From an uncultured Candidatus Saccharibacteria bacterium (GTDB lineage: Bacteria > Patescibacteriota > Andersenbacteria > UBA10190): DNA of 64,000 nucleotides. The stretch is from NCBI GenBank assembly GCA_964372635.1, contig CAYJQW010000001.1, positions 4,083-68,082 of the forward strand, given 5' to 3'. Made by a program: the position numbers and the translations under genes. Below the pieces are notes generated by a model. That model was not told the origin of the DNA. It saw nothing but the letters and a program-made list of their open reading frames with translations, and ran no database searches. This document shows, one piece after another, positions 4,384-54,566 of this stretch; within the stretch, counting starts at the first letter, position 1; every line of letters begins with the position of its first letter.

Positions 4384-5202
4384 ATGGCAAAAAATCTGTG
4401 TTTACGTGTGTCTCGACACACAAACCAGGTCGAGCCGCGCCTAGCGGCGCTGCGTCCCGTCTTCGGATTGGACGTAGAAATACATCATGAGGATGTACAA
4501 TACCGCGGTAATCCGCGACAGGCCATACAGGCTGTCCTTGACCGACTGAAGAGTGAAGGCCACCAGGTCGTCGGGGTCGAGGTGGTCGGCGGCGCCGACA
4601 TCCTTGAACAGCTCGTCGGCCCAAACGGCTTAGAGCTCCCTGTATTGCAAGCGGAATTTGCCCGCGACGTCGAAGGACAAATCAAGACGGCGGGCAAAGA
4701 AGCTGGCAGTGGCCGAGACGTATTTGCCTTTGGGCGATATGTCCAGGTCAAACGAGCTGGTGTTAACAAGCGCCCGTTCGAGGCAGCTGATCTACCCGTC
4801 TCGGGGTCAATCCGCGTGGGTTGGATCAGTCGCGACACGGATGAGCAGCTCGTTGACATGCGCCGCCAGGCGCTCGAGCATCTTCTACCGGGTCGGTCGG
4901 TCGAGCTGGTCGTCTTCGACTGCAAATTCGGAGATGACCCATTAACGGCCATCAAGGCGGCGTTGCCTGATGGTCTACACGCCCTGGACCCCGGCGCTGG
5001 CTTCGTTTACACGAAGTTGGTCGGCGACCGCGGGTCAAGGTTGGGAGTACCGGTTTTGAACGCTCGCTTTGAGTGTGAGCCGGGAAGCCGCCGGGCCAAA
5101 GTTGTTGGCCAGGATTCTCGTGGACGTGATATCCTCGCGTTTACGGGATACGACTTGGTCGAGAGCCTCGTGCTCGAGACCGAGCCTCTTGTTGGGTCAT
5201 AG
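4384..5202 (+). CDS. Hypothetical protein (272 aa)
   Basis: An AAAGGAG RBS precedes the ATG. This is the first gene of the + strand run. No motif was recognised. Confidence 0.55.
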   Translation: MAKNLCLRVSRHTNQVEPRLAALRPVFGLDVEIHHEDVQYRGNPRQAIQAVLDRLKSEGHQVVGVEVVGGADILEQLVGPNGLELPVLQAEFARDVEGQIKTAGKEAGSGRDVFAFGRYVQVKRAGVNKRPFEAADLPVSGSIRVGWISRDTDEQLVDMRRQALEHLLPGRSVELVVFDCKFGDDPLTAIKAALPDGLHALDPGAGFVYTKLVGDRGSRLGVPVLNARFECEPGSRRAKVVGQDSRGRDILAFTGYDLVESLVLETEPLVGS

Positions 5203-5254: not shown

Positions 5255-5324
5255 CTTTGTTCCTCTCAAATCATTTTGAGATGTGCAATGTTGATAAGTT
5301 TTCAAAATTCCAAAAAAGGAGGAA

Positions 5325-6269
5325 ATGATGAAAATTCAGATCCAAAAAAACGCCGAGTTTAAACTGCTTTATTTTGAACTCAGCGTCTGGGGAGTCAACC
5401 CCAGTGTGGTCGCCCATAAAATCAATGAGGTGGCCGAGCAGCTGGCTGGACCGGAAACGGTGCTGCTGCGCGGACAGGGTCCGGTGTGGGTGTACGCGAT
5501 GCTGACGCACGCGGCCCATGCTTGCCCCAATGTGGCCACCTTCGAGCCTCGCAAGGAAGGGTTCGTGGTGGCAACGTGTCACAACGGCCGTTGGCTGCCG
5601 GGCGAGGTCATTCCTGCTGCCACCATCGGTATGATGGTGGATGGCGGGAAAATCGTGGGTGGTGACGAGTTCATGGAGCGACCACGGTTGGTCATCTCCG
5701 TGGGCGGTCCTGCTCACTCCGGCAAGTCAATCTTTCTGGCCGAACTGTACCGACAGCTGCTGACCAGAATGCCCGGTGAGGTATTCCTCCAGCGGGCATG
5801 CCCAGATGGCGAGGGGATGTGGTCGGCGGAGTCTGACCCCACCTTGGCGCAAGCCATTCGCCAGAAGGGCAAGTTCACGGAGAATTTCTGCTCATGGTTG
5901 GCCGATGCCATCCAGGGACTCAAGCGGGGTTTCAAGATCACCCTGCTCGACTTGGGCGGCAAACGGTTGCCACCCAATGACGAAGTTCTTCAGCATTCCA
6001 CCCATCTTCTGGTTCTTTCCTCCAACGAGGATGAGACCAAAGCCTGGATGGAGTATGGGCGCGAGCACGGCTGCGAAATCATCGCTGCTTTTTCTTCTCG
6101 CCTCCTCAAGCTCGAGAGCGGTGAGCTTGATGCAACCGTCCGCTCCTCGGTGAGCCTGACTGCCGAGCCGGTACAAGGGGAAATGGTGAATCTGGACCGT
6201 GGTGGTCCGGTCACTCCCTATCAGGAAGCTATCAGCCAATTTGCCGACTGGTTGATCGCCAAGGTATAG
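5325..6269 (+). CDS. Two-domain P-loop NTPase: an unknown ~130-aa N-terminal domain plus a kinase-like P-loop domain
   Basis: AAAGGAGG RBS. A Walker A motif is present in VISVGGPAHSGKSIFLAELY, and a Walker B-like ITLLDLGG follows. The N-terminal domain (KLLYFELS...GQGPVWVYAMLTHAAH) was not recognised. Confidence 0.6.
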   Translation: MMKIQIQKNAEFKLLYFELSVWGVNPSVVAHKINEVAEQLAGPETVLLRGQGPVWVYAMLTHAAHACPNVATFEPRKEGFVVATCHNGRWLPGEVIPAATIGMMVDGGKIVGGDEFMERPRLVISVGGPAHSGKSIFLAELYRQLLTRMPGEVFLQRACPDGEGMWSAESDPTLAQAIRQKGKFTENFCSWLADAIQGLKRGFKITLLDLGGKRLPPNDEVLQHSTHLLVLSSNEDETKAWMEYGREHGCEIIAAFSSRLLKLESGELDATVRSSVSLTAEPVQGEMVNLDRGGPVTPYQEAISQFADWLIAKV

Positions 6270-6408: not shown

Positions 6409-6753
6409 ATGAAAATACTGTGGATGTCGCGTCATACGCCAACTCCCCGGCAGCTTCAAGCGCTGCGGGAGAGACACGGCGAAGACACGGTTGTGGAGCA
6501 AGAATCCAAACCGTTCGATGACGCGCGGCAGATCGCCCGTCGGTACCGCAGCGGTAGCTATGACGATATTGTAGTCGTGGCACCACTTTCGGTAATTGAC
6601 GTTCTGTGCAAAGAAGGCATTCAGCCTCTTTGGTCAGAGGCAGCCGAGGAAAACGATCCGAAAAAGATTGAATTCCGCGGTGCCCGCGGACAGGGCTATC
6701 GTTTCGTTCGGTTCCGCCGCATCAAGTGCGTGCGGATTGAGTTCGAAGACTGA
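6409..6753 (+). CDS. Small hypothetical protein (114 aa)
   Basis: A GGAG RBS is present. The stop lies 22 nt upstream of the AAA+ gene start. The N-terminus, MKILWMSRHTPTPRQLQAL, looks alpha/beta-like. Confidence 0.5.
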   Translation: MKILWMSRHTPTPRQLQALRERHGEDTVVEQESKPFDDARQIARRYRSGSYDDIVVVAPLSVIDVLCKEGIQPLWSEAAEENDPKKIEFRGARGQGYRFVRFRRIKCVRIEFED

Positions 6754-6774: not shown

Positions 6775-7989
6775 GTGAACGATTTGTTGCAGAAGGCGAT
6801 CGCTCTGGCGCCGAAAGTTCAGAGCACTGCACATGACGTGCAGACCCGGCACATTGGACGCAGCGACGTGGTGCAAGCCGCGTGGCTGTCACTCGTGTCG
6901 GGCCGTCCCGCGTTTTTCTTGGGGAGCCCCGGTATTGATAAAACCGGGACGATCCAGGACATGGCGCGGCGGATTGGCGGAGCTGTCTTCTATGACGTGC
7001 TCATGCCGACGATTGTTTCAGTGGAGCAGCTGCTCGTCGAGTCTACCTCGATCGAGGAGGTGCCCGCTGCCAACGGCGGCAAAGCCATCCGCACCCGTGA
7101 CACGCTCGGACGGGCAGCGCTGGCGCACCTGCTCTTCGCTGATGAGATCTGGAAAGCGGAACCTCGCGTTCTGCAGACCCTGATCGACTTGAGCAAGGGC
7201 GACGGTGTGCGACATGAAGGTCAGATGGTAAAAACACCACTCCTGGCTTTCCTCGCTGCCAGCAACGAACTGCCGGAACCCGAGGGCAACCTCGGTGCCG
7301 TGTGGTCCCGCATGACCATCCGTGTGGTGGTCAACCCGCTGGATCGCGCGGGCAAGCAGTCGTTGGTCAAAGCTCGTCTGAACCGGAGTGCCAACAGTGT
7401 TTCGTCTGCAGCTCAGCTCACGCTGGCTGACGTCGAAATGCTGCGGGCCGCCCGGCGTCACGTTGATGTTCCGCAAGGTGTCGTTGATACCGTGCTGGAC
7501 ATTTACCAGGAACTGCTCGACGACAAGTCGGCAGATTTTTCCTGGGCGTGGTCAGACGATCGCCGCTTCGGACGCGTGTTCGATGTACTGCAGGCCAAGG
7601 CACTGCTTGACGGCCGCACAACGGTCGGCAAGCACGATGTGGCGGTGCTGGAGTGGCTGCTCTGGGATATTCCCGAGCACATTCCGCTCGTCAAAGCCAA
7701 GCTCGCGCCGTACTGCCGGACGTCGCTGTCTGAGGCAGTTGAAGTGGTCGATGCTCTGCTGTCCCCCAGCGGAGTGGTCGAAACGGTTCGCAAGGGGGAT
7801 CGGCTGAAGGGTGTTCAGGCCATCACGCAGTGTGAGGCCGCCCTTTCCGAACTCAAGCGTCTCCAGAGCGAGGCGGACAGTGTGATGTCTTCCAAGATTG
7901 CTGACCTGGTTAGCCAGGTGGAAGCGGTCAAGCAGGACGTCTTCGCTGTTGTGACCGGGGCGCGAAAACCCCAGCCGGCCTCCGCGTAA
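6775..7989 (+). CDS. MoxR-like AAA+ ATPase (AAA_5 type)
   Basis: GTG start after an AAAGGAGA RBS. Walker A is GSPGIDKTG. Walker B is LLFADEIWKAEP, followed by the VLQTLIDL helix. Sensor-1 is LAASNELPE. The C-terminus has a coiled-coil extension. Confidence 0.7.
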   Translation: MNDLLQKAIALAPKVQSTAHDVQTRHIGRSDVVQAAWLSLVSGRPAFFLGSPGIDKTGTIQDMARRIGGAVFYDVLMPTIVSVEQLLVESTSIEEVPAANGGKAIRTRDTLGRAALAHLLFADEIWKAEPRVLQTLIDLSKGDGVRHEGQMVKTPLLAFLAASNELPEPEGNLGAVWSRMTIRVVVNPLDRAGKQSLVKARLNRSANSVSSAAQLTLADVEMLRAARRHVDVPQGVVDTVLDIYQELLDDKSADFSWAWSDDRRFGRVFDVLQAKALLDGRTTVGKHDVAVLEWLLWDIPEHIPLVKAKLAPYCRTSLSEAVEVVDALLSPSGVVETVRKGDRLKGVQAITQCEAALSELKRLQSEADSVMSSKIADLVSQVEAVKQDVFAVVTGARKPQPASA

Positions 7990-8015: not shown

Positions 8016-9686
8016 ATGAACGAGAAAAAACTTAAGTCTCTCTCGAGGCAAGAGTTACAAAAGCTCTTGGTGTCGGACGCGGATGCTTTCACAGCATTGC
8101 GTTATCTGCGACACCGAGAGGCAGTCCCGGTGCTTCCCGAGCTCGAGGAGCAAGGACAGGATGTTCTTCCCGGAAGCGAAGGAGTGCTCGCGGATCTCTA
8201 CTACGGATTGTGGAATCCGGAGCCTACCCTCAAGGATGAGGTAGCGCCGGATCGTCAGTACTGGCAGCAAATGTTAGGCCAAACGATTGAAACATCGGCC
8301 TATCAAGAGCTGCACGCGGCCACGCAACTCAAGGAGCTGCAGTCAATTCTCGGGACAATCACCATGGGCGAATCTGTCCTGGCGATGGTGCCGAAGAAAG
8401 ACCAGCAAAAACTCCAAGAGGTGCAGGAAGCGTCCGAAGACGCCAAGGATTTGGCGGAAACAGCAGCAGAGGCCGAAGCAGCAGCGCAAGCTGCCCAGCA
8501 GTTGGCTTCAGCCGCCGCCAAGGCTATGGCCGACAAGGATGCTGTCCAGCAAGGTTCGGGCTCGCCCGCCGGAGCGCAAGCGAAGGCGGGTCAGATGGAC
8601 CCAAAGCAAGCACGAGAGTTGGCCAATGAGTTGGCTTCGGCCGCCGCCAAGGCTATGGCCGACAAGCAAGCAGCTCAGGAGTTGGCTCAAGAAGCTAAAG
8701 ACCGTGCCCAAGAACTTTCTAAGAAGTTACTGGGCAAGCCGGGTAGTGAGCAAGCGGAGCAAAAACTTCGTGAGCTCACCCGCATCGGTTTACAAGCCGC
8801 GCGTAACGCCCAAGCTAAGGTGGAGGAGGTTTCCGAAACCATCGAAGCCTGGGGTTTGGAGCAAAGTGAGCTGACACGCCAAGGGATTCCCGAGGCGCTG
8901 GCGCTACTTCAGCGCATGAAGCGCAATGCAGCGCTCAAGCAGTTCGCCGGACTTCTCGGCCGCCTTCGCAAGATTGCGGCTCGGAAGGCTCGCTCTAAAA
9001 CAGCCGGAGAAGGAGTGCGGGTCACGGTTCCGGAAACGGGCCGGGATATTCGCCGCGCTCATAGCTCTGAGCTGGTTGCGCTTGTTCACCCAGCACTCCG
9101 CGTTAAAGGATTGACGCGTTGGGCACGTGGTGAACTGCGGTTGGTTGGTCAGCGCACGAAGCAGAAGCTTGGTCATGGACCGGTCATCGTCTGTGAAGAC
9201 GGATCCGGTTCGATGGAAGGAGCCAAGCAGCAGTGGGCAAAGGGAGTGACACTGTCACTCGCTCACTATGCGAAACTCCAAAAGCGGTCGTTCGGGTGGG
9301 TACTCTTTGATAGTGCTGTAAAGCAATCAAGGAATTATCCGCAAGGACGATTGACTGCCGAGCACATGCTTGAACTGGCCGAGTCGCGGGCCGGTGGCGG
9401 AACTGACTTTGAGTCACCGCTTAGAGCCGCCATCGAAATGATTCAGAAGGAAGGCCTTAAAAAAGCCGACATCTGCTTTATCACTGATGGTGAGTGCGCA
9501 GTCAGCGACGAGTTCCTTCGGGAATTTCTGGCGGTCAAGAAGACGTACGAGGTCAACGTGTTTACAGTTCTCTGCGATGTTGGCTCGACGTCTGACGCGA
9601 CTGTTCAGCAGTTCTCGGATCAAGTGGTTCGCGCTTCAAGCTTCACGGCAGAAGAAGCTGAGGTTGCGGTGTTTGGTTCTTTATAA
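8016..9686 (+). CDS. VWA-domain protein with a MIDAS motif and an Ala/Gln-rich coiled coil
   Basis: GGGAGG RBS. The C-terminal domain has the VIVCEDGSGSM MIDAS motif (DxSxS) with the later conserved T and D residues (GGTDFE, FITDGE). The central segment contains an internally duplicated LASAAAKAMADK. Confidence 0.75.
   Translation: MNEKKLKSLSRQELQKLLVSDADAFTALRYLRHREAVPVLPELEEQGQDVLPGSEGVLADLYYGLWNPEPTLKDEVAPDRQYWQQMLGQTIETSAYQELHAATQLKELQSILGTITMGESVLAMVPKKDQQKLQEVQEASEDAKDLAETAAEAEAAAQAAQQLASAAAKAMADKDAVQQGSGSPAGAQAKAGQMDPKQARELANELASAAAKAMADKQAAQELAQEAKDRAQELSKKLLGKPGSEQAEQKLRELTRIGLQAARNAQAKVEEVSETIEAWGLEQSELTRQGIPEALALLQRMKRNAALKQFAGLLGRLRKIAARKARSKTAGEGVRVTVPETGRDIRRAHSSELVALVHPALRVKGLTRWARGELRLVGQRTKQKLGHGPVIVCEDGSGSMEGAKQQWAKGVTLSLAHYAKLQKRSFGWVLFDSAVKQSRNYPQGRLTAEHMLELAESRAGGGTDFESPLRAAIEMIQKEGLKKADICFITDGECAVSDEFLREFLAVKKTYEVNVFTVLCDVGSTSDATVQQFSDQVVRASSFTAEEAEVAVFGSL
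8502..8666 (+). repeat. In-frame 36-bp direct repeat inside the VWA gene (8502-8537 and 8631-8666)
   Basis: The two copies match at 35 of 36 nt and are spaced 129 nt apart. Each encodes LASAAAKAMADK. Confidence 0.7.
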
Positions 9687-9815: not shown

Positions 9816-11408
9816 TTGGCGTCCCAACTTATCGTTTCGCTGGAAGCCAGGGAAGGCAAAAACCCTGGTGAGGCGATTGGTACTTACCAAAGGTGCCACA
9901 TCGTCTTCTTGCCCCACGGGACGCCGGTCGACGTCACTGTCAGGGTTGTGCTGGAAGAAATCACAACTAAAAAAGACAGTGCCGGTCGGACGATGTACCG
10001 TGGCGTGCCAGCCCCGGTTGAGTACAGCGATCGCTGGAAAAACAATGGCGACGGAACGATCTCCAAGATCACCGTCTCCAAGGACTGGCTTGGTACTGAT
10101 TGCGAGGAAGGCATCATTGAAACACGCCAACTCGCAACACGTGAGGGTGCTCCGTATACTCGAACTGAGCGTCAGGTACGCTGGGGTTCTACCTTGGCAG
10201 CCTGCACTGTTGATGTCGCTGACATCACGACCATTCCCACGGAAGTGGAGATGGTGCAGAACGGGCAGCTCGGCTGGCGAAAAACCAGCGAGCGGGAGGA
10301 GAAATCTTCATGCTCTGTGTCAGTCACGGACGTGCGAGTGACGAGCCTGGACAGCACTGTGTGGCAGTCCTCGTATCCGTCTGAGTGGCAGCTTTCGGCA
10401 GCAGTAGACCATGATGGTACAAGCATCTCGGTGCGTGTGCCGTGGTCGAATGCACCGAAGGAAGTGCGCGAGCGGATCGAGAATCGCTACCCGGTCTGCG
10501 TCTGTGGTCGCCAGCGTTACGACGTGCAAAATTCCGACGGCTACCTCAAGTGCGAGAAGTGTCGGGAAGAAGAGCACTGCGTGCGTTGTGGCAAGCAGGC
10601 AAAGGTTGCGGTCATCAGTAGTCGCTTAATTTGTGCGAACTGCAAACCGTATGAAGAGCAGGAACAACTCGTTAATCGAGTTTGCTCTGTTCAACAGCGG
10701 CAAGCACTAGCGCAACAAGCGACGCGGCTCTTGGCAGGTAATGCCGTGCCGCGCGAAGCTGGTGAAGCGATCATGCGCTCTACGCTTGGTCACGTTGAGC
10801 CGGAATGGAAACGAAACGACCTCGCACAGAAACATGCCGGGTACGCCTGGTACTACTTCTGCGATGAGGGCGTCTACGGTTCCAAGTTTCCTTCGGCGGC
10901 TCTGCAGATTCTGCAGGGATTGTCGGAGGCATCCGGAAACGGCGTGGTCGAGTTGGTCGCATGGCTGACAGGCTACCAGAAGGTTGATGACTGTGAGCGG
11001 TATGGAGATTTCTTCTGCCGCACGCAGGTGAGGGGAGAGACTGTCACTCCCACCTTGACTGAAAGCAGCCTGCAACGGCTGATCTTGACAGTGAAGCTGC
11101 GAGGTTCAGAAGCTGATCGCATCGAGGTATTGCAAAAGTATCGGGCTATGACCGAAAGGCCGTACCCTGATGCCGAGCAAACAAGAGCAGTCGCAGATAT
11201 CCTGAGCAGCGATGCGCAGGACTATGCGGCGGCACTGGCCAAGATGCGCGAGGCGGAAGAGCTTCGTATGGCACAAGAGCAGAGGAAGCAGCAAAAGCTT
11301 TTTTCTTCTCAGTCAACACCTGTTACTCCCACCGATAAGGACGAGAGTAAGCAGCGGGGACTGGAAAATCTGCTCAACAAGTGGGGCGACCCCCACAAAA
11401 AACAATGA
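9816..11408 (+). CDS. Hypothetical 530-aa protein with an N-terminal TRAM-like beta-barrel and a Cys4 zinc ribbon
   Basis: TTG start after an AAAGGAG RBS. The N-terminus GEAIGTYQRCHIVFLPHGTPVDVTVRVV follows a TRAM-like pattern. A CxxC-(13)-CxxC cluster sits at residues ~230-250. Additional CxxC pairs (CVRC ... CANC) follow within ~30 residues. The C-terminus is a Gln/Glu-rich coiled coil. Confidence 0.55.
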   Translation: MASQLIVSLEAREGKNPGEAIGTYQRCHIVFLPHGTPVDVTVRVVLEEITTKKDSAGRTMYRGVPAPVEYSDRWKNNGDGTISKITVSKDWLGTDCEEGIIETRQLATREGAPYTRTERQVRWGSTLAACTVDVADITTIPTEVEMVQNGQLGWRKTSEREEKSSCSVSVTDVRVTSLDSTVWQSSYPSEWQLSAAVDHDGTSISVRVPWSNAPKEVRERIENRYPVCVCGRQRYDVQNSDGYLKCEKCREEEHCVRCGKQAKVAVISSRLICANCKPYEEQEQLVNRVCSVQQRQALAQQATRLLAGNAVPREAGEAIMRSTLGHVEPEWKRNDLAQKHAGYAWYYFCDEGVYGSKFPSAALQILQGLSEASGNGVVELVAWLTGYQKVDDCERYGDFFCRTQVRGETVTPTLTESSLQRLILTVKLRGSEADRIEVLQKYRAMTERPYPDAEQTRAVADILSSDAQDYAAALAKMREAEELRMAQEQRKQQKLFSSQSTPVTPTDKDESKQRGLENLLNKWGDPHKKQ

Positions 11409-11599: not shown

Positions 11600-12141
11600 A
11601 CGCCGTGGGAATCGAATGATTAAATCGATGCGATCCGTCCGCCAAAAAAGCGGATTCTATCTCTCTCTTGATCCCGTAAAATCGCCGTTGGCGGTCACGG
11701 GAGGTAACAAAGATTTGATGATTCGTATAATTTCTCAGGCACTGCTGGCTTGCAGCCTTGTGGCGGTTATTTTTTATTTTGCCCTTTGTGTCCGGGTTTT
11801 TTATCTGGCTTTTCCGAAATTCGGTATTGCCAGTTCGCCGGTTACTTGCTCTAATCCCCCAGCGCCAAAGGCTTCGGAGGGACACAGTAAGGTTCTAACT
11901 TGCTTCTTAAAGGCGGACTTTCTATTAAGAGAAGAGAGGTATCTCCTCTCTCATGACGTTTGCTACTCTCACTGCTCTCACCTCATTCAGTTTCCTCAGG
12001 TTTCGAGATGAACTAGAAAATTCGAGTCATATTAATTTTACATTACTAAATGGTGGCTGACCCATTCCCTACCCTGACTCCATTACCTACCCCGACTGTT
12101 TTTGGTTTATTGATCTTTTCGATACACTATAGAGTAAATTC

Positions 12142-12492
12142 ATGCCTGACATCATTCTCATTAAAAAACAAATCAGCCGAGAAAAGCTTAAAGAGATTGC
12201 GCAGCTGCGCTTCGGTGACTTGGTTAAAGCGGTTGTTGATATTGAGAAAAATATTATGGCCATTGGCGGTGAACTTCATGCGGACGAAGAAGCATTTCTA
12301 CTTGATAACGGATCTGAACAGAAAAACCTATGGGGTATTAATCTTTATCCTGAACTTGCACTGCCCGATATGCTTGAGTTTGATTCTATGATTAATATTC
12401 GGCCACAATCAGGTAATTCATCTCGCAATATCGAAGACTCGGAAATAAAGCAAAAGATAACTGCCCTAGTTGGCACGCTAATCGAGGAATGA
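12142..12492 (+). CDS. Conserved small hypothetical protein (116 aa)
   Basis: A low-GC ORF. It is the first gene to the right of the island. Confidence 0.45.
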   Translation: MPDIILIKKQISREKLKEIAQLRFGDLVKAVVDIEKNIMAIGGELHADEEAFLLDNGSEQKNLWGINLYPELALPDMLEFDSMINIRPQSGNSSRNIEDSEIKQKITALVGTLIEE

Positions 12493-53550: not shown

Positions 53551-53627
53551 TGGCGGACCCGGCCGGGCTCGAACCGGTGACCTCTTCCGTGACAGGGAAG
53601 CGCTCTAACCAACTGAGCTACGGGTCC
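53551..53627 (-). tRNA. tRNA-Asp (GTC), CCA encoded
   Basis: The reverse complement folds into a cloverleaf with anticodon loop CTGTCAC, T-loop TTCGAGC and an encoded CCA. 49-65 is an A.C mismatch. Confidence 0.8.
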
Positions 53628-53934
53628 TTACTATGCTCTGTCCTCTCGACAGAGCTACACTGGACAAGATACAGCTAATAACTAATATTTGTCCCGCGAA
53701 GCTCTCTAAAGAAATTCTGAGCAAAAAGGTAAAGATAAGAGTCCTGTTTTGCTAGAATATTGAAGATCTGTCTGTTTGTCTATATTGTGTCTGTACCTAG
53801 ACACGGCTGCAATATTTTTACCAAGCCAGATAGGTTAGAGCAGATCATATCGTAAAAAATCCTGATATGGTACTGATGTGGCGGGCCCTGCCCGCCGTAG
53901 TTCTAAAGCTCGTCGCAGAGCAAAGGCGGGGTAG

Positions 53935-54008
53935 CTCAGTTGGTTAGAGCGCGGGACTCATAAGCCCGAGGTCGCGAGTTCGATTCTCGCCCCCGCTACA
54001 AATTAAAA
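53935..54008 (+). tRNA. tRNA-Met (CAT), elongator-like; tRNA-Ile2 not excluded
   Basis: GGCGGGG..CCCCGCTA acceptor with G1.U72. Canonical GG D-loop and TTCGATT T-loop. Anticodon loop CTCATAA. 31-39 is A.G. CCA is not encoded. Confidence 0.75.
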
Positions 54009-54491
54009 GTTAAGGTCTTAAAGTCACTTGACGAACTTACGTCAACTTTCACGCGACAACGAAAATTAATCGTTTTTAACCACCTCAGTGATATACCCTA
54101 CAGACATATTTGTAGGGATTTTACACATCCGGCGTATCGAGTGATCGAGTCTATAACGGGCAACCCCGCCTAAGGCGGGGTTGTTGAGATATGCTGGTTC
54201 CTTCACAGATACTGATACCAAAACACGAGCGTATTCCGTATCATGATCTTGAGAAGGAACAACAAGCGATATACTCCTTTGTAAGGCCAGTAGTTCGATT
54301 TGTGTGCATTACCCTCATTTAAGAAAGGGTTATTAAATCGTTTACTGGTATGTCATCAGCATCGCGAATATTAGCTTGCGACGCAATGGTTTTAAGGCAC
54401 CAGTTTGTCAATCTTGCTTGACGTCTTATTTTATTGTAAACTACAAGACCATAGCCGCCTAATCGTGCCATCGGTGCCTTGGTGGTATTAT

Positions 54492-54566
54492 CGCGGGGTG
54501 GAGAAGTAGTATCTCGCCTGGCTCATAACCAGGAAATCGCTGGTGCAATTCCAGCCCCCGCTACCA
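54492..54566 (+). tRNA. Initiator-type tRNA-Met (CAT) with non-canonical D- and T-loops; CCA encoded
   Basis: Tracks E. coli tRNA-fMet arm by arm (CGCGGGG-TG-..-CTCATAA-..-CCCCGCT-A-CCA) with a 1:72 mismatch (C.U). The D-loop AGTAGTA lacks G18G19. The T-loop is TGCAATT. Confidence 0.6.

Follow-up and report, generated by a model that had tools for sequence, protein, structure and literature searches.

What does a gene of the CRISPR signaling world do in a chromosomal island that holds no CRISPR-Cas system? The question is raised by a 64,000-nucleotide stretch of contig CAYJQW010000001.1 (GenBank assembly GCA_964372635.1, an uncultured Candidatus Saccharibacteria bacterium)—the whole of which is called the window in the following—and by one of its genes at 5325..6269, whose open reading frame (ORF) translates to 314 amino acids (aa). 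This gene and all other features lie on the plus strand unless stated otherwise. The original prediction, made from the letters of the DNA, had proposed a two-domain P-loop protein at this position and, as a guess, a Csx3/Crn3-AAA fusion. Both proposals have held: the ORF is real and conserved, the N-terminal domain matches Pfam Cas_csx3 (PF09620) with 47.7 bits, the PADLOC model "Csx3-AAA" is matched with an E of 2.9e-41, and the tblastn match to slr7080 of Synechocystis covers both domains. The protein is a further member of the known Csx3-AAA family, and what is new is its CRISPR-less, MoxR-vWA-linked context in Patescibacteria. For this context, we favor—at a probability of roughly 55%—a reading in which the protein is a self-limiting sensor-switch in the service of a MoxR-vWA conflict operon.

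The Csx3 domain and its NTPase partner

About 25 full-length homologues share 50–66% identity with the protein, and >150 further homologues of ~200 aa each match its C-terminal 61% only. A deep profile search with the C-terminal domain collected 689 representatives (clustered at 50%), of which 494 reached E ≤ 1e-10. Hence, the gene is conserved and no chance ORF. The named homologues belong to Patescibacteria—Pacebacteria, Sungbacteria, Doudnabacteria, and Minisyncoccales. On the level of the whole protein, the Csx3-AAA model of PADLOC (PDLC01045) aligns to residues 37–308 over profile positions 40–282 of 286, and the PADLOC model "AAA-Csx3" (C3a67) recognizes the C-terminal domain with an E of 1.5e-31.

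The N-terminal half was originally thought to comprise ~130 residues. In the AlphaFold2 (AF2) model, it is actually made up of a domain of ~100 residues (residues 1–100, 5325..5624) and a linker of ~20 residues with a short β-hairpin (residues 101–119, 5625..5681; strands 103–106 and 109–112). Profile searches with this domain matched the Csx3 family and no metabolic family: the PF09620 match spans residues 40–96 with an E of 1.4e-12, above the gathering cutoff of 21 bits, and phmmer against PDB sequences retrieves Csx3 of Archaeoglobus fulgidus (AfCsx3; 3wzi, 6vjg, and 6yud) with an E of ~5e-7 over residues 2–99. The Csx3 fold is present as well, and AfCsx3 was also matched by fold in the structure comparison of the AF2 model. 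Judged by its sequence, the N-terminal domain is a bona fide Csx3.

The Csx3/Crn3 fold is that of a Mn2+-dependent ring nuclease for cyclic tetra-adenylate (cA4) (PMC7371418). In the window protein, the GQGPVW loop (residues 50–55, 5472..5489) aligns to the cA4-binding loop G45-R46-G47-P48-I49-W50 of AfCsx3, and the catalytic set H62, H65, E74, R76, and H86 (5508..5582) aligns to H57, H60, D69, R71, and H80. The segment WVYAMLTHAAH, singled out in the original prediction, was located at residues 55–65 of this domain. Mutants of AfCsx3 have marked H60 and D69 as essential and H57, H80, and R71 as important, whereas cA4 is contacted by S44, G45, R46, I49, and R71, of which G45, I49, and R71 are invariant (PMC7371418). 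The three histidines and the arginine are retained in the window protein, and D69 is conservatively swapped for E74; at the contact positions, G50, V54, and R76 match the invariant contacts of AfCsx3, and R49 and Q51 replace S44 and R46. The Csx3 domain is, thus read, probably catalytically competent. The same pattern—H, H, R, H, and D or E—is kept in most fused homologues and in all examined split Csx3 partners from Patescibacteria and cyanobacteria. Compared with AfCsx3/Crn3 (PDB 3wzg, 3wzi, 6yud, and 6vjg), the GxGPxW loop and the equivalents of H57, H60, R71, and H80 are common to both; AfCsx3 is a stand-alone protein of ~110 aa from a type III locus, whereas the window protein bears a fused nucleoside triphosphatase (NTPase) and the substitutions D69 → E, S44 → R, and R46 → Q.

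This C-terminal NTPase domain (residues 120–314, 5682..6266) is the "AAA" of the name Csx3-AAA. The Walker A motif and the Walker B-like stretch that had been read from its sequence are both there. Walker A is GGPAHSGKS (residues 127–135, 5703..5729), a canonical GxxxxGKS whose positions G127, G128, P129, G133, and K134 are invariant among 48 homologues, and Walker B is ITLLDLGG (residues 205–212, 5937..5960), of the hhhhDxxG type with D209, G211, and G212 invariant. A family-specific motif, RACPDGEG, occupies residues 157–164 (5793..5816), with R157, P160, D161, and G162 invariant in the alignment. The loop that follows it is flexible in the AF2 model—the predicted local distance difference test falls below 50 at residues 162–170—and may serve as a switch.

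The best structural neighbors of the modeled domain are NTPases of the SIMIBI class, namely MinD, ParA, dethiobiotin synthetase, and the GTPases of the signal recognition particle (SRP); other neighbors are the synthetase domain of CTP synthase, Mrp/HypB-type proteins, NifH, and Get3. On the strength of this model, the C-terminal domain is a SIMIBI-class NTPase with a MinD/ParA/SRP-like fold, which corrects the label "AAA". MinD, ParA, Mrp, and other SIMIBI proteins are its closest structural relatives and have the hhhhDxxG Walker B in common with it. It differs from MinD/ParA by its own RACPDGEG motif, by the lack of any sequence-level family match, and by the absence of their signature lysine (xKGGxGK[ST]): the window protein reads V-G-G-P-A-H-S-G-K-S, with the family-invariant Pro129 in its place. 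In Pfam scans of the domain, no family came near its cutoff, and DO-GTPase1 stayed at chance level (E 0.22, 11.2 bits vs 27). As the homologue alignment shows no conserved guanine motif of the NKxD type, ATP is likely to be the nucleotide rather than GTP.

Two further identities were considered for this domain. An AAA+ ATPase was rejected, as the AAA+ core fold with its helical lid was not found. A kinase of the AAA_33, zeta-toxin, or PNK type was set aside as well: there is no Pfam kinase match, and kinases rank structurally well below MinD, ParA, and BioD. The AAA_33-type kinase domain of the original prediction has therefore given way to the SIMIBI assignment.

The partnership of the two domains extends far beyond this protein. 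Among the best 150 of the 689 P-loop representatives, the architecture is P-loop-Csx3(-Csx3) in 46 and Csx3(-Csx3)-P-loop in 35, whereas 66 consist of the P-loop domain alone. Three P-loop-only proteins (P0029, P0061, and P0097) each have a Csx3 gene of 100–108 aa directly upstream. The same holds for stand-alone P-loop genes in the loci from our genome scan (numbered L001 onward) wherever the upstream flank is readable, and L004 holds an additional split pair in reverse order—the P-loop gene followed by the Csx3 gene. The pairing of Csx3 with the NTPase is obligate: in every flank-readable locus, the two are either fused, in one order or the other, or encoded side by side. Some related loci carry extra paralogues (L003 6563–8536 and 11953–12324, L004 4627–5626, and L012 8697–10673)—another stand-alone P-loop gene, several ~120-aa ORFs resembling Csx3, and a P-loop paralogue embedded in a protein of 658 aa—which suggests a local expansion of the Csx3-NTPase module.

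Both orders are familiar from the literature. Csx3-AAA (cluster 35 of Shah et al. 2018, e.g., CYB_0599; Slr7080; PDLC01045) has both domains of the window protein, likewise with Csx3 first. AAA-Csx3 (Shah cluster 67, Caur_2269; PADLOC C3a67) has the same P-loop family and the same partnership with Csx3, differing by the reversed domain order and often by two tandem Csx3 domains (P0158 and P0165). In a tblastn search of plasmids, matches were confined to cyanobacterial plasmids, among them a 310-aa gene on pSYSA of Synechocystis (75157–76089), which aligns to residues 39–293 (E 2e-10) and adjoins cmr genes and a CRISPR array. This gene is taken to be slr7080, the Csx3-AAA gene of the literature (PMC8136920, PMC6546367), since it lies upstream of type III-B genes and agrees with slr7080 in length and in its two domains. 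Slr7080 and the window protein are similar in length (310 vs 313–314 aa) but only 24% identical.

The island and its operon

The window is chromosomal, encoding RF1, DnaE, ThrRS, GyrB, PheT, and LigA. From position 1 to ~11.9 kb, its GC content amounts to 52–58% compared with 42–44% elsewhere, which defines a high-GC island that includes the Csx3-NTPase gene. The window begins inside this island, so only the right boundary is visible. A second, independent Logan assembly of the same sample (L035) spans that junction; an assembly chimera at the GC shift is therefore ruled out.

That the island lacks CRISPR-Cas had been part of the original prediction, and three kinds of search agree with it. 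The window contains no CRISPR array; with PADLOC, neither the island nor the remaining 52 ORFs of the window yielded a cas protein, Cas10, or CD-NTase; and Pfam scans of the window proteins return no cas or Cas10 match. In the neighborhoods of seven Patescibacteria-group loci, no cas family is among the 25 most frequent of 79 Pfam families, and none was found among the neighbors of L001–L013. The same seven loci have four serine recombinases among their neighbors, and the L003 contig carries a coupling protein of a type IV secretion system (T4SS), a resolvase, and toxin-antitoxin genes. The cyanobacterial branch of the same close subfamily (47–52% identity) is situated differently: its loci hold nine RAMP hits, Cas6, and a CRISPR array (the array in L022). 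Known Csx3-AAA proteins are accessories of type III CRISPR systems, mainly in cyanobacteria (PMC6546367), whereas the window gene sits in a MoxR-vWA operon with no CRISPR-Cas nearby.

This operon runs from a 272-aa protein (4384..5202) through the Csx3-NTPase and a 114-aa protein (6409..6753) to MoxR, vWA, and a 530-aa Cys-rich protein. The MoxR-family AAA+ ATPase (404 aa, 6775..7989) matches PF20030 bpMoxR above the cutoff (68.6 bits) as well as AAA_lid_8 and AAA_5, and matches the RavA model with an E of 2.4e-28, below that model's cutoff. Its vWA-domain partner (556 aa, 8016..9686) matches PF13519 VWA_2 above the cutoff (29.8 bits) and the ViaA model below it (E 4e-13). Both proteins match phage families over their full length: MoxR phrog_19600 (E 1e-29) and the vWA protein phrog_24053 (E 3e-58). 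The vWA protein also shares 35% identity with ORF063 of Bacillus phage 0305phi8-36, described as a "metalloprotein chaperonin subunit". The third operon component (530 aa, 9816..11408) contains several CxxC pairs and is Zn-ribbon-like, β-rich toward its N-terminus and helical toward its C-terminus. Pfam, PADLOC, and PHROG gave no match for it, and six related loci (L003, L007, L010/L011, L017, L021, and L028) likewise encode it behind the vWA gene.

The gene set recurs elsewhere. In L007, a locus of Sungbacteria, Csx3 and the P-loop domain are encoded by separate genes, and these are followed by a 115-aa protein, MoxR, vWA, and a large protein, with identities to the window counterparts of 50%, 71.5%, 63%, and 45%, respectively. 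MoxR, vWA, and Zn-ribbon genes occur together in L003, L007, L010/L011, L017, and L028; MoxR and vWA are also found in L004, and a similar operon is listed for L012. The 114-aa gene accompanies the MoxR-vWA-Zn-ribbon genes in L007, L017, L021, and L028.

Such an arrangement—MoxR (PF20030) and vWA, then a third conserved protein—is that of the MoxR-vWA ternary conflict systems (Kaur, Burroughs, Iyer & Aravind 2020). The third component here matches none of those described (VMAP, iSTAND, FtsH, β-propeller) by sequence searches. Kaur et al. described one system with Csx3 fused to vWA, whereas here Csx3 is part of a separate gene and fused to the NTPase; their systems come from multicellular actinobacteria or cyanobacteria, the present one from Patescibacteria.

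The two small proteins that flank the module are related to each other. The 272-aa protein is a tandem duplication of an α/β domain of ~130 aa, which we call W-S-H, and the 114-aa protein bears a single copy of it. Both halves of the 272-aa protein match single-domain proteins of 133–135 aa, and such single-domain W-S-H proteins lie directly upstream of the fused Csx3-NTPase in L001, L005, L015, and L016. By profile–profile comparison, the 114-aa protein falls into one family with both halves of the 272-aa protein (hhalign probability 96.4%, E 1e-9, 117 columns). This homology is seen by that means only: BLASTP between the two proteins is not significant (E 0.36). A word-based homologue search with the 272-aa protein returned nothing but the protein itself, and the protein has no Pfam, PADLOC, or PHROG match. 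As far as such comparisons reach, W-S-H is a new small domain with three copies in the island.

Genes for phosphoesterases form a second recurrent neighborhood. HD_4 genes stand beside the module in L004, in L012, and, with four hits, in cyanobacterial loci, an HD protein is encoded near slr7080, and a PHP gene occurs in L003; Pfam hits below threshold add DHHA1 in L010 (E 1e-3) and NUDIX in L001 (E 1.5e-3). Their coordinates are 9220–9786 in L004, 10847–11389 in L012, 10963–11829 in L003, 4126–5001 in L010, 11295–11834 in L001, and 6593–7174 in L014. They are found in CRISPR-linked and CRISPR-less loci alike. Their recurrence beside the module hints at further processing of the ring-opening products.

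Role of the module and competing explanations

SIMIBI NTPases act as nucleotide-dependent dimers. Csx3, on its part, binds cA4 only when it is sandwiched between two dimers, stacked head to tail (PMC7371418). Because fusion or adjacency of the two domains is the rule without exception and both work through dimers, the ligand-driven stacking of Csx3 dimers is probably coupled to dimerization of the P-loop domains and to NTP hydrolysis, and this coupling could run either way. The module would then be a self-limiting sensor and timer, which reads an oligoadenylate signal, switches the state of the NTPase, and subsequently destroys the signal. Regulation of an ATPase by cyclic oligoadenylate through Csx3 was previously proposed by Shah et al. 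(PMC6546367). A dimerizing switch of the SIMIBI type fits the dimer stacking of Csx3 and gives the coupling a concrete, testable form.

MoxR and its vWA partner together remodel a client protein (Kaur et al.), and in Leptolyngbya the vWA component of such a ternary conflict system carries a fused Csx3 domain (PMC7159879). Given this activity and this precedent, the module most plausibly provides the sensing or regulation for a MoxR-vWA conflict (defense-type) system, having moved—probably horizontally—into a CRISPR-less operon here and in many Patescibacteria. The proteins of this operon (MoxR, vWA, the Zn-ribbon protein, and the small domain) are candidates for physical partners of the module outside of CRISPR. 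If the module works without Cas10, the biology of ring nucleases and oligoadenylates would reach past CRISPR and into a lineage largely devoid of it. Tentatively, and with a good deal of doubt, this might be taken further: Patescibacteria could bear a widespread, CRISPR-independent signaling or conflict system, in which the module senses a messenger of the oligoadenylate type, then destroys it, and gates a machine made of MoxR, vWA, and the Zn-ribbon protein, W-S-H acts as signal generator, adaptor, or effector, and the cyanobacterial Csx3-AAA proteins mark one recruitment of a general sensor-switch.

Several observations weigh against the sensor-switch reading. Its main weakness is the signal itself: neither the 64-kb window nor the ±10 kb around the Patescibacteria loci yielded an enzyme able to synthesize cA4 or another cyclic oligonucleotide, which makes the ligand hypothetical here. 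The Csx3 domain reaches 41.3 bits with TIGR02579, the stricter NCBIfam equivalog model of Crn3, below its cutoff of 55.4. Since two ligand contacts have changed (S44 → R49 and R46 → Q51) and D69 is a glutamate, the ligand may also be one other than cA4. Within the operon, PADLOC matches a model with the Csx3 protein only, and L001, L005, L015, L018, and L019 contain the module without MoxR-vWA. Moreover, the catalytic histidines that the window protein keeps are gone from Slr7080 and P0018, so ring cleavage is not universal in the family. In the sole genetic test, deletion of slr7080 gave no phenotype, plasmid interference in Synechocystis being unaffected, as stated in PMC9676260 with reference to Shah et al. 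Family members without loop and histidines are probably not ring nucleases, and this loss may explain the missing phenotype. The GxGPxW loop, too, is absent from P0018 and from Slr7080 (the pSYSA gene taken as slr7080, L014 8872–9804).

Among the alternatives, a role in oligonucleotide turnover or salvage survives best, and we regard it as unlikely. Csx3 would here be a Mn2+-dependent oligoadenylate or 3′-deadenylating phosphodiesterase on linear RNA or nanoRNA, with the P-loop domain as a kinase-like or energy-coupling partner and the neighboring phosphoesterases finishing the breakdown—a useful capacity for Patescibacteria auxotrophic for nucleotides. The first description of AfCsx3 was indeed that of a deadenylating exoribonuclease (Yan et al. 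2015, as recounted in PMC7371418 and PMC7159879). The main support for turnover comes from the phosphoesterase genes that recur beside the module, HD_4 and PHP above all; the DHHA1 and NUDIX hits are weak and stay below the Pfam cutoffs, and in the window's own island neither Pfam nor PADLOC recognizes any phosphoesterase. The structural ranking of kinases far behind MinD, ParA, and BioD, together with the missing kinase match, speaks against the kinase-like partner. In addition, the patchy, island-borne distribution with its recombinases and the T4SS element fits an accessory or conflict system better than a housekeeping function.

The surroundings of the gene also invite the idea of anti-defense cargo. 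A mobile element might carry the protein to destroy cA4 produced by a type III CRISPR or CBASS-like system of the recipient, similar to the viral AcrIII-1. This explanation can point to the contrast between an island of 52–58% GC and a chromosome of 42–44%, to the T4SS coupling protein, resolvase, and toxin-antitoxin genes on the homologous L003 contig, to the serine recombinases near the Patescibacteria loci, and to the intact catalytic residues. Yet it appears improbable. No homologue was found in 50,697 phage records or in IMG/VR, so carriage as a viral anti-CRISPR is unsupported. The cyanobacterial relatives lie inside type III loci of the host and not on invaders. The ring nuclease is always tied to the NTPase, often within a large MoxR-vWA operon, which would be needless for a simple signal sponge. 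CRISPR-Cas is rare in Patescibacteria, and such cargo would hence meet few targets.

Similarly improbable is a pure sensor without catalysis, in which Csx3 would only bind a ligand or partner protein and control the NTPase in the manner of a STAS or CARF domain: earlier work has compared Csx3 to STAS domains (PMC7159879; PMC12409355), and Slr7080 and P0018 keep the fusion without the histidines, but the broad retention of H, H, R, H, and D/E—in the window protein, most fused homologues, and all examined split partners—argues for selection on catalysis.

Gene start and further features of the window

Two ATG codons stand in tandem at the start of the Csx3-NTPase gene (within 5318–5330). A GGAGG box at 5318–5322 lies 2 nt ahead of the first ATG and 5 nt ahead of the second, and a 313-aa form was called both in an independent assembly (L034) and in a protein collection (P0388). 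Given this Shine–Dalgarno spacing and the independent gene calls, translation probably begins at the second ATG (5328) and yields a product of 313 aa. An exact-sequence look-up of the 314-aa product gave no match; the databases carry the 313-aa form.

Positions 1–2100 of the window, within the island, hold overlapping and unconvincing ORFs on both strands and no Rfam hit; a 155-aa ORF at 1504–1971 was called as a gene in an independent assembly and has no family match. Scans for Rfam families, tRNAs, and tandem repeats across the window found no RNA element near the Csx3-NTPase gene, and returned three distant tRNAs and one trivial repeat. The tRNAs—tRNA-Asp on the minus strand and two tRNA-Met—form a cluster at 53551–54566, distant from and unrelated to the island. 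The repeat, with a period of 18 bp at 12057–12097, is located near the right edge of the island, just before the gene of a DUF5674 protein (12142–12492), which is the first gene past the drop in GC content.

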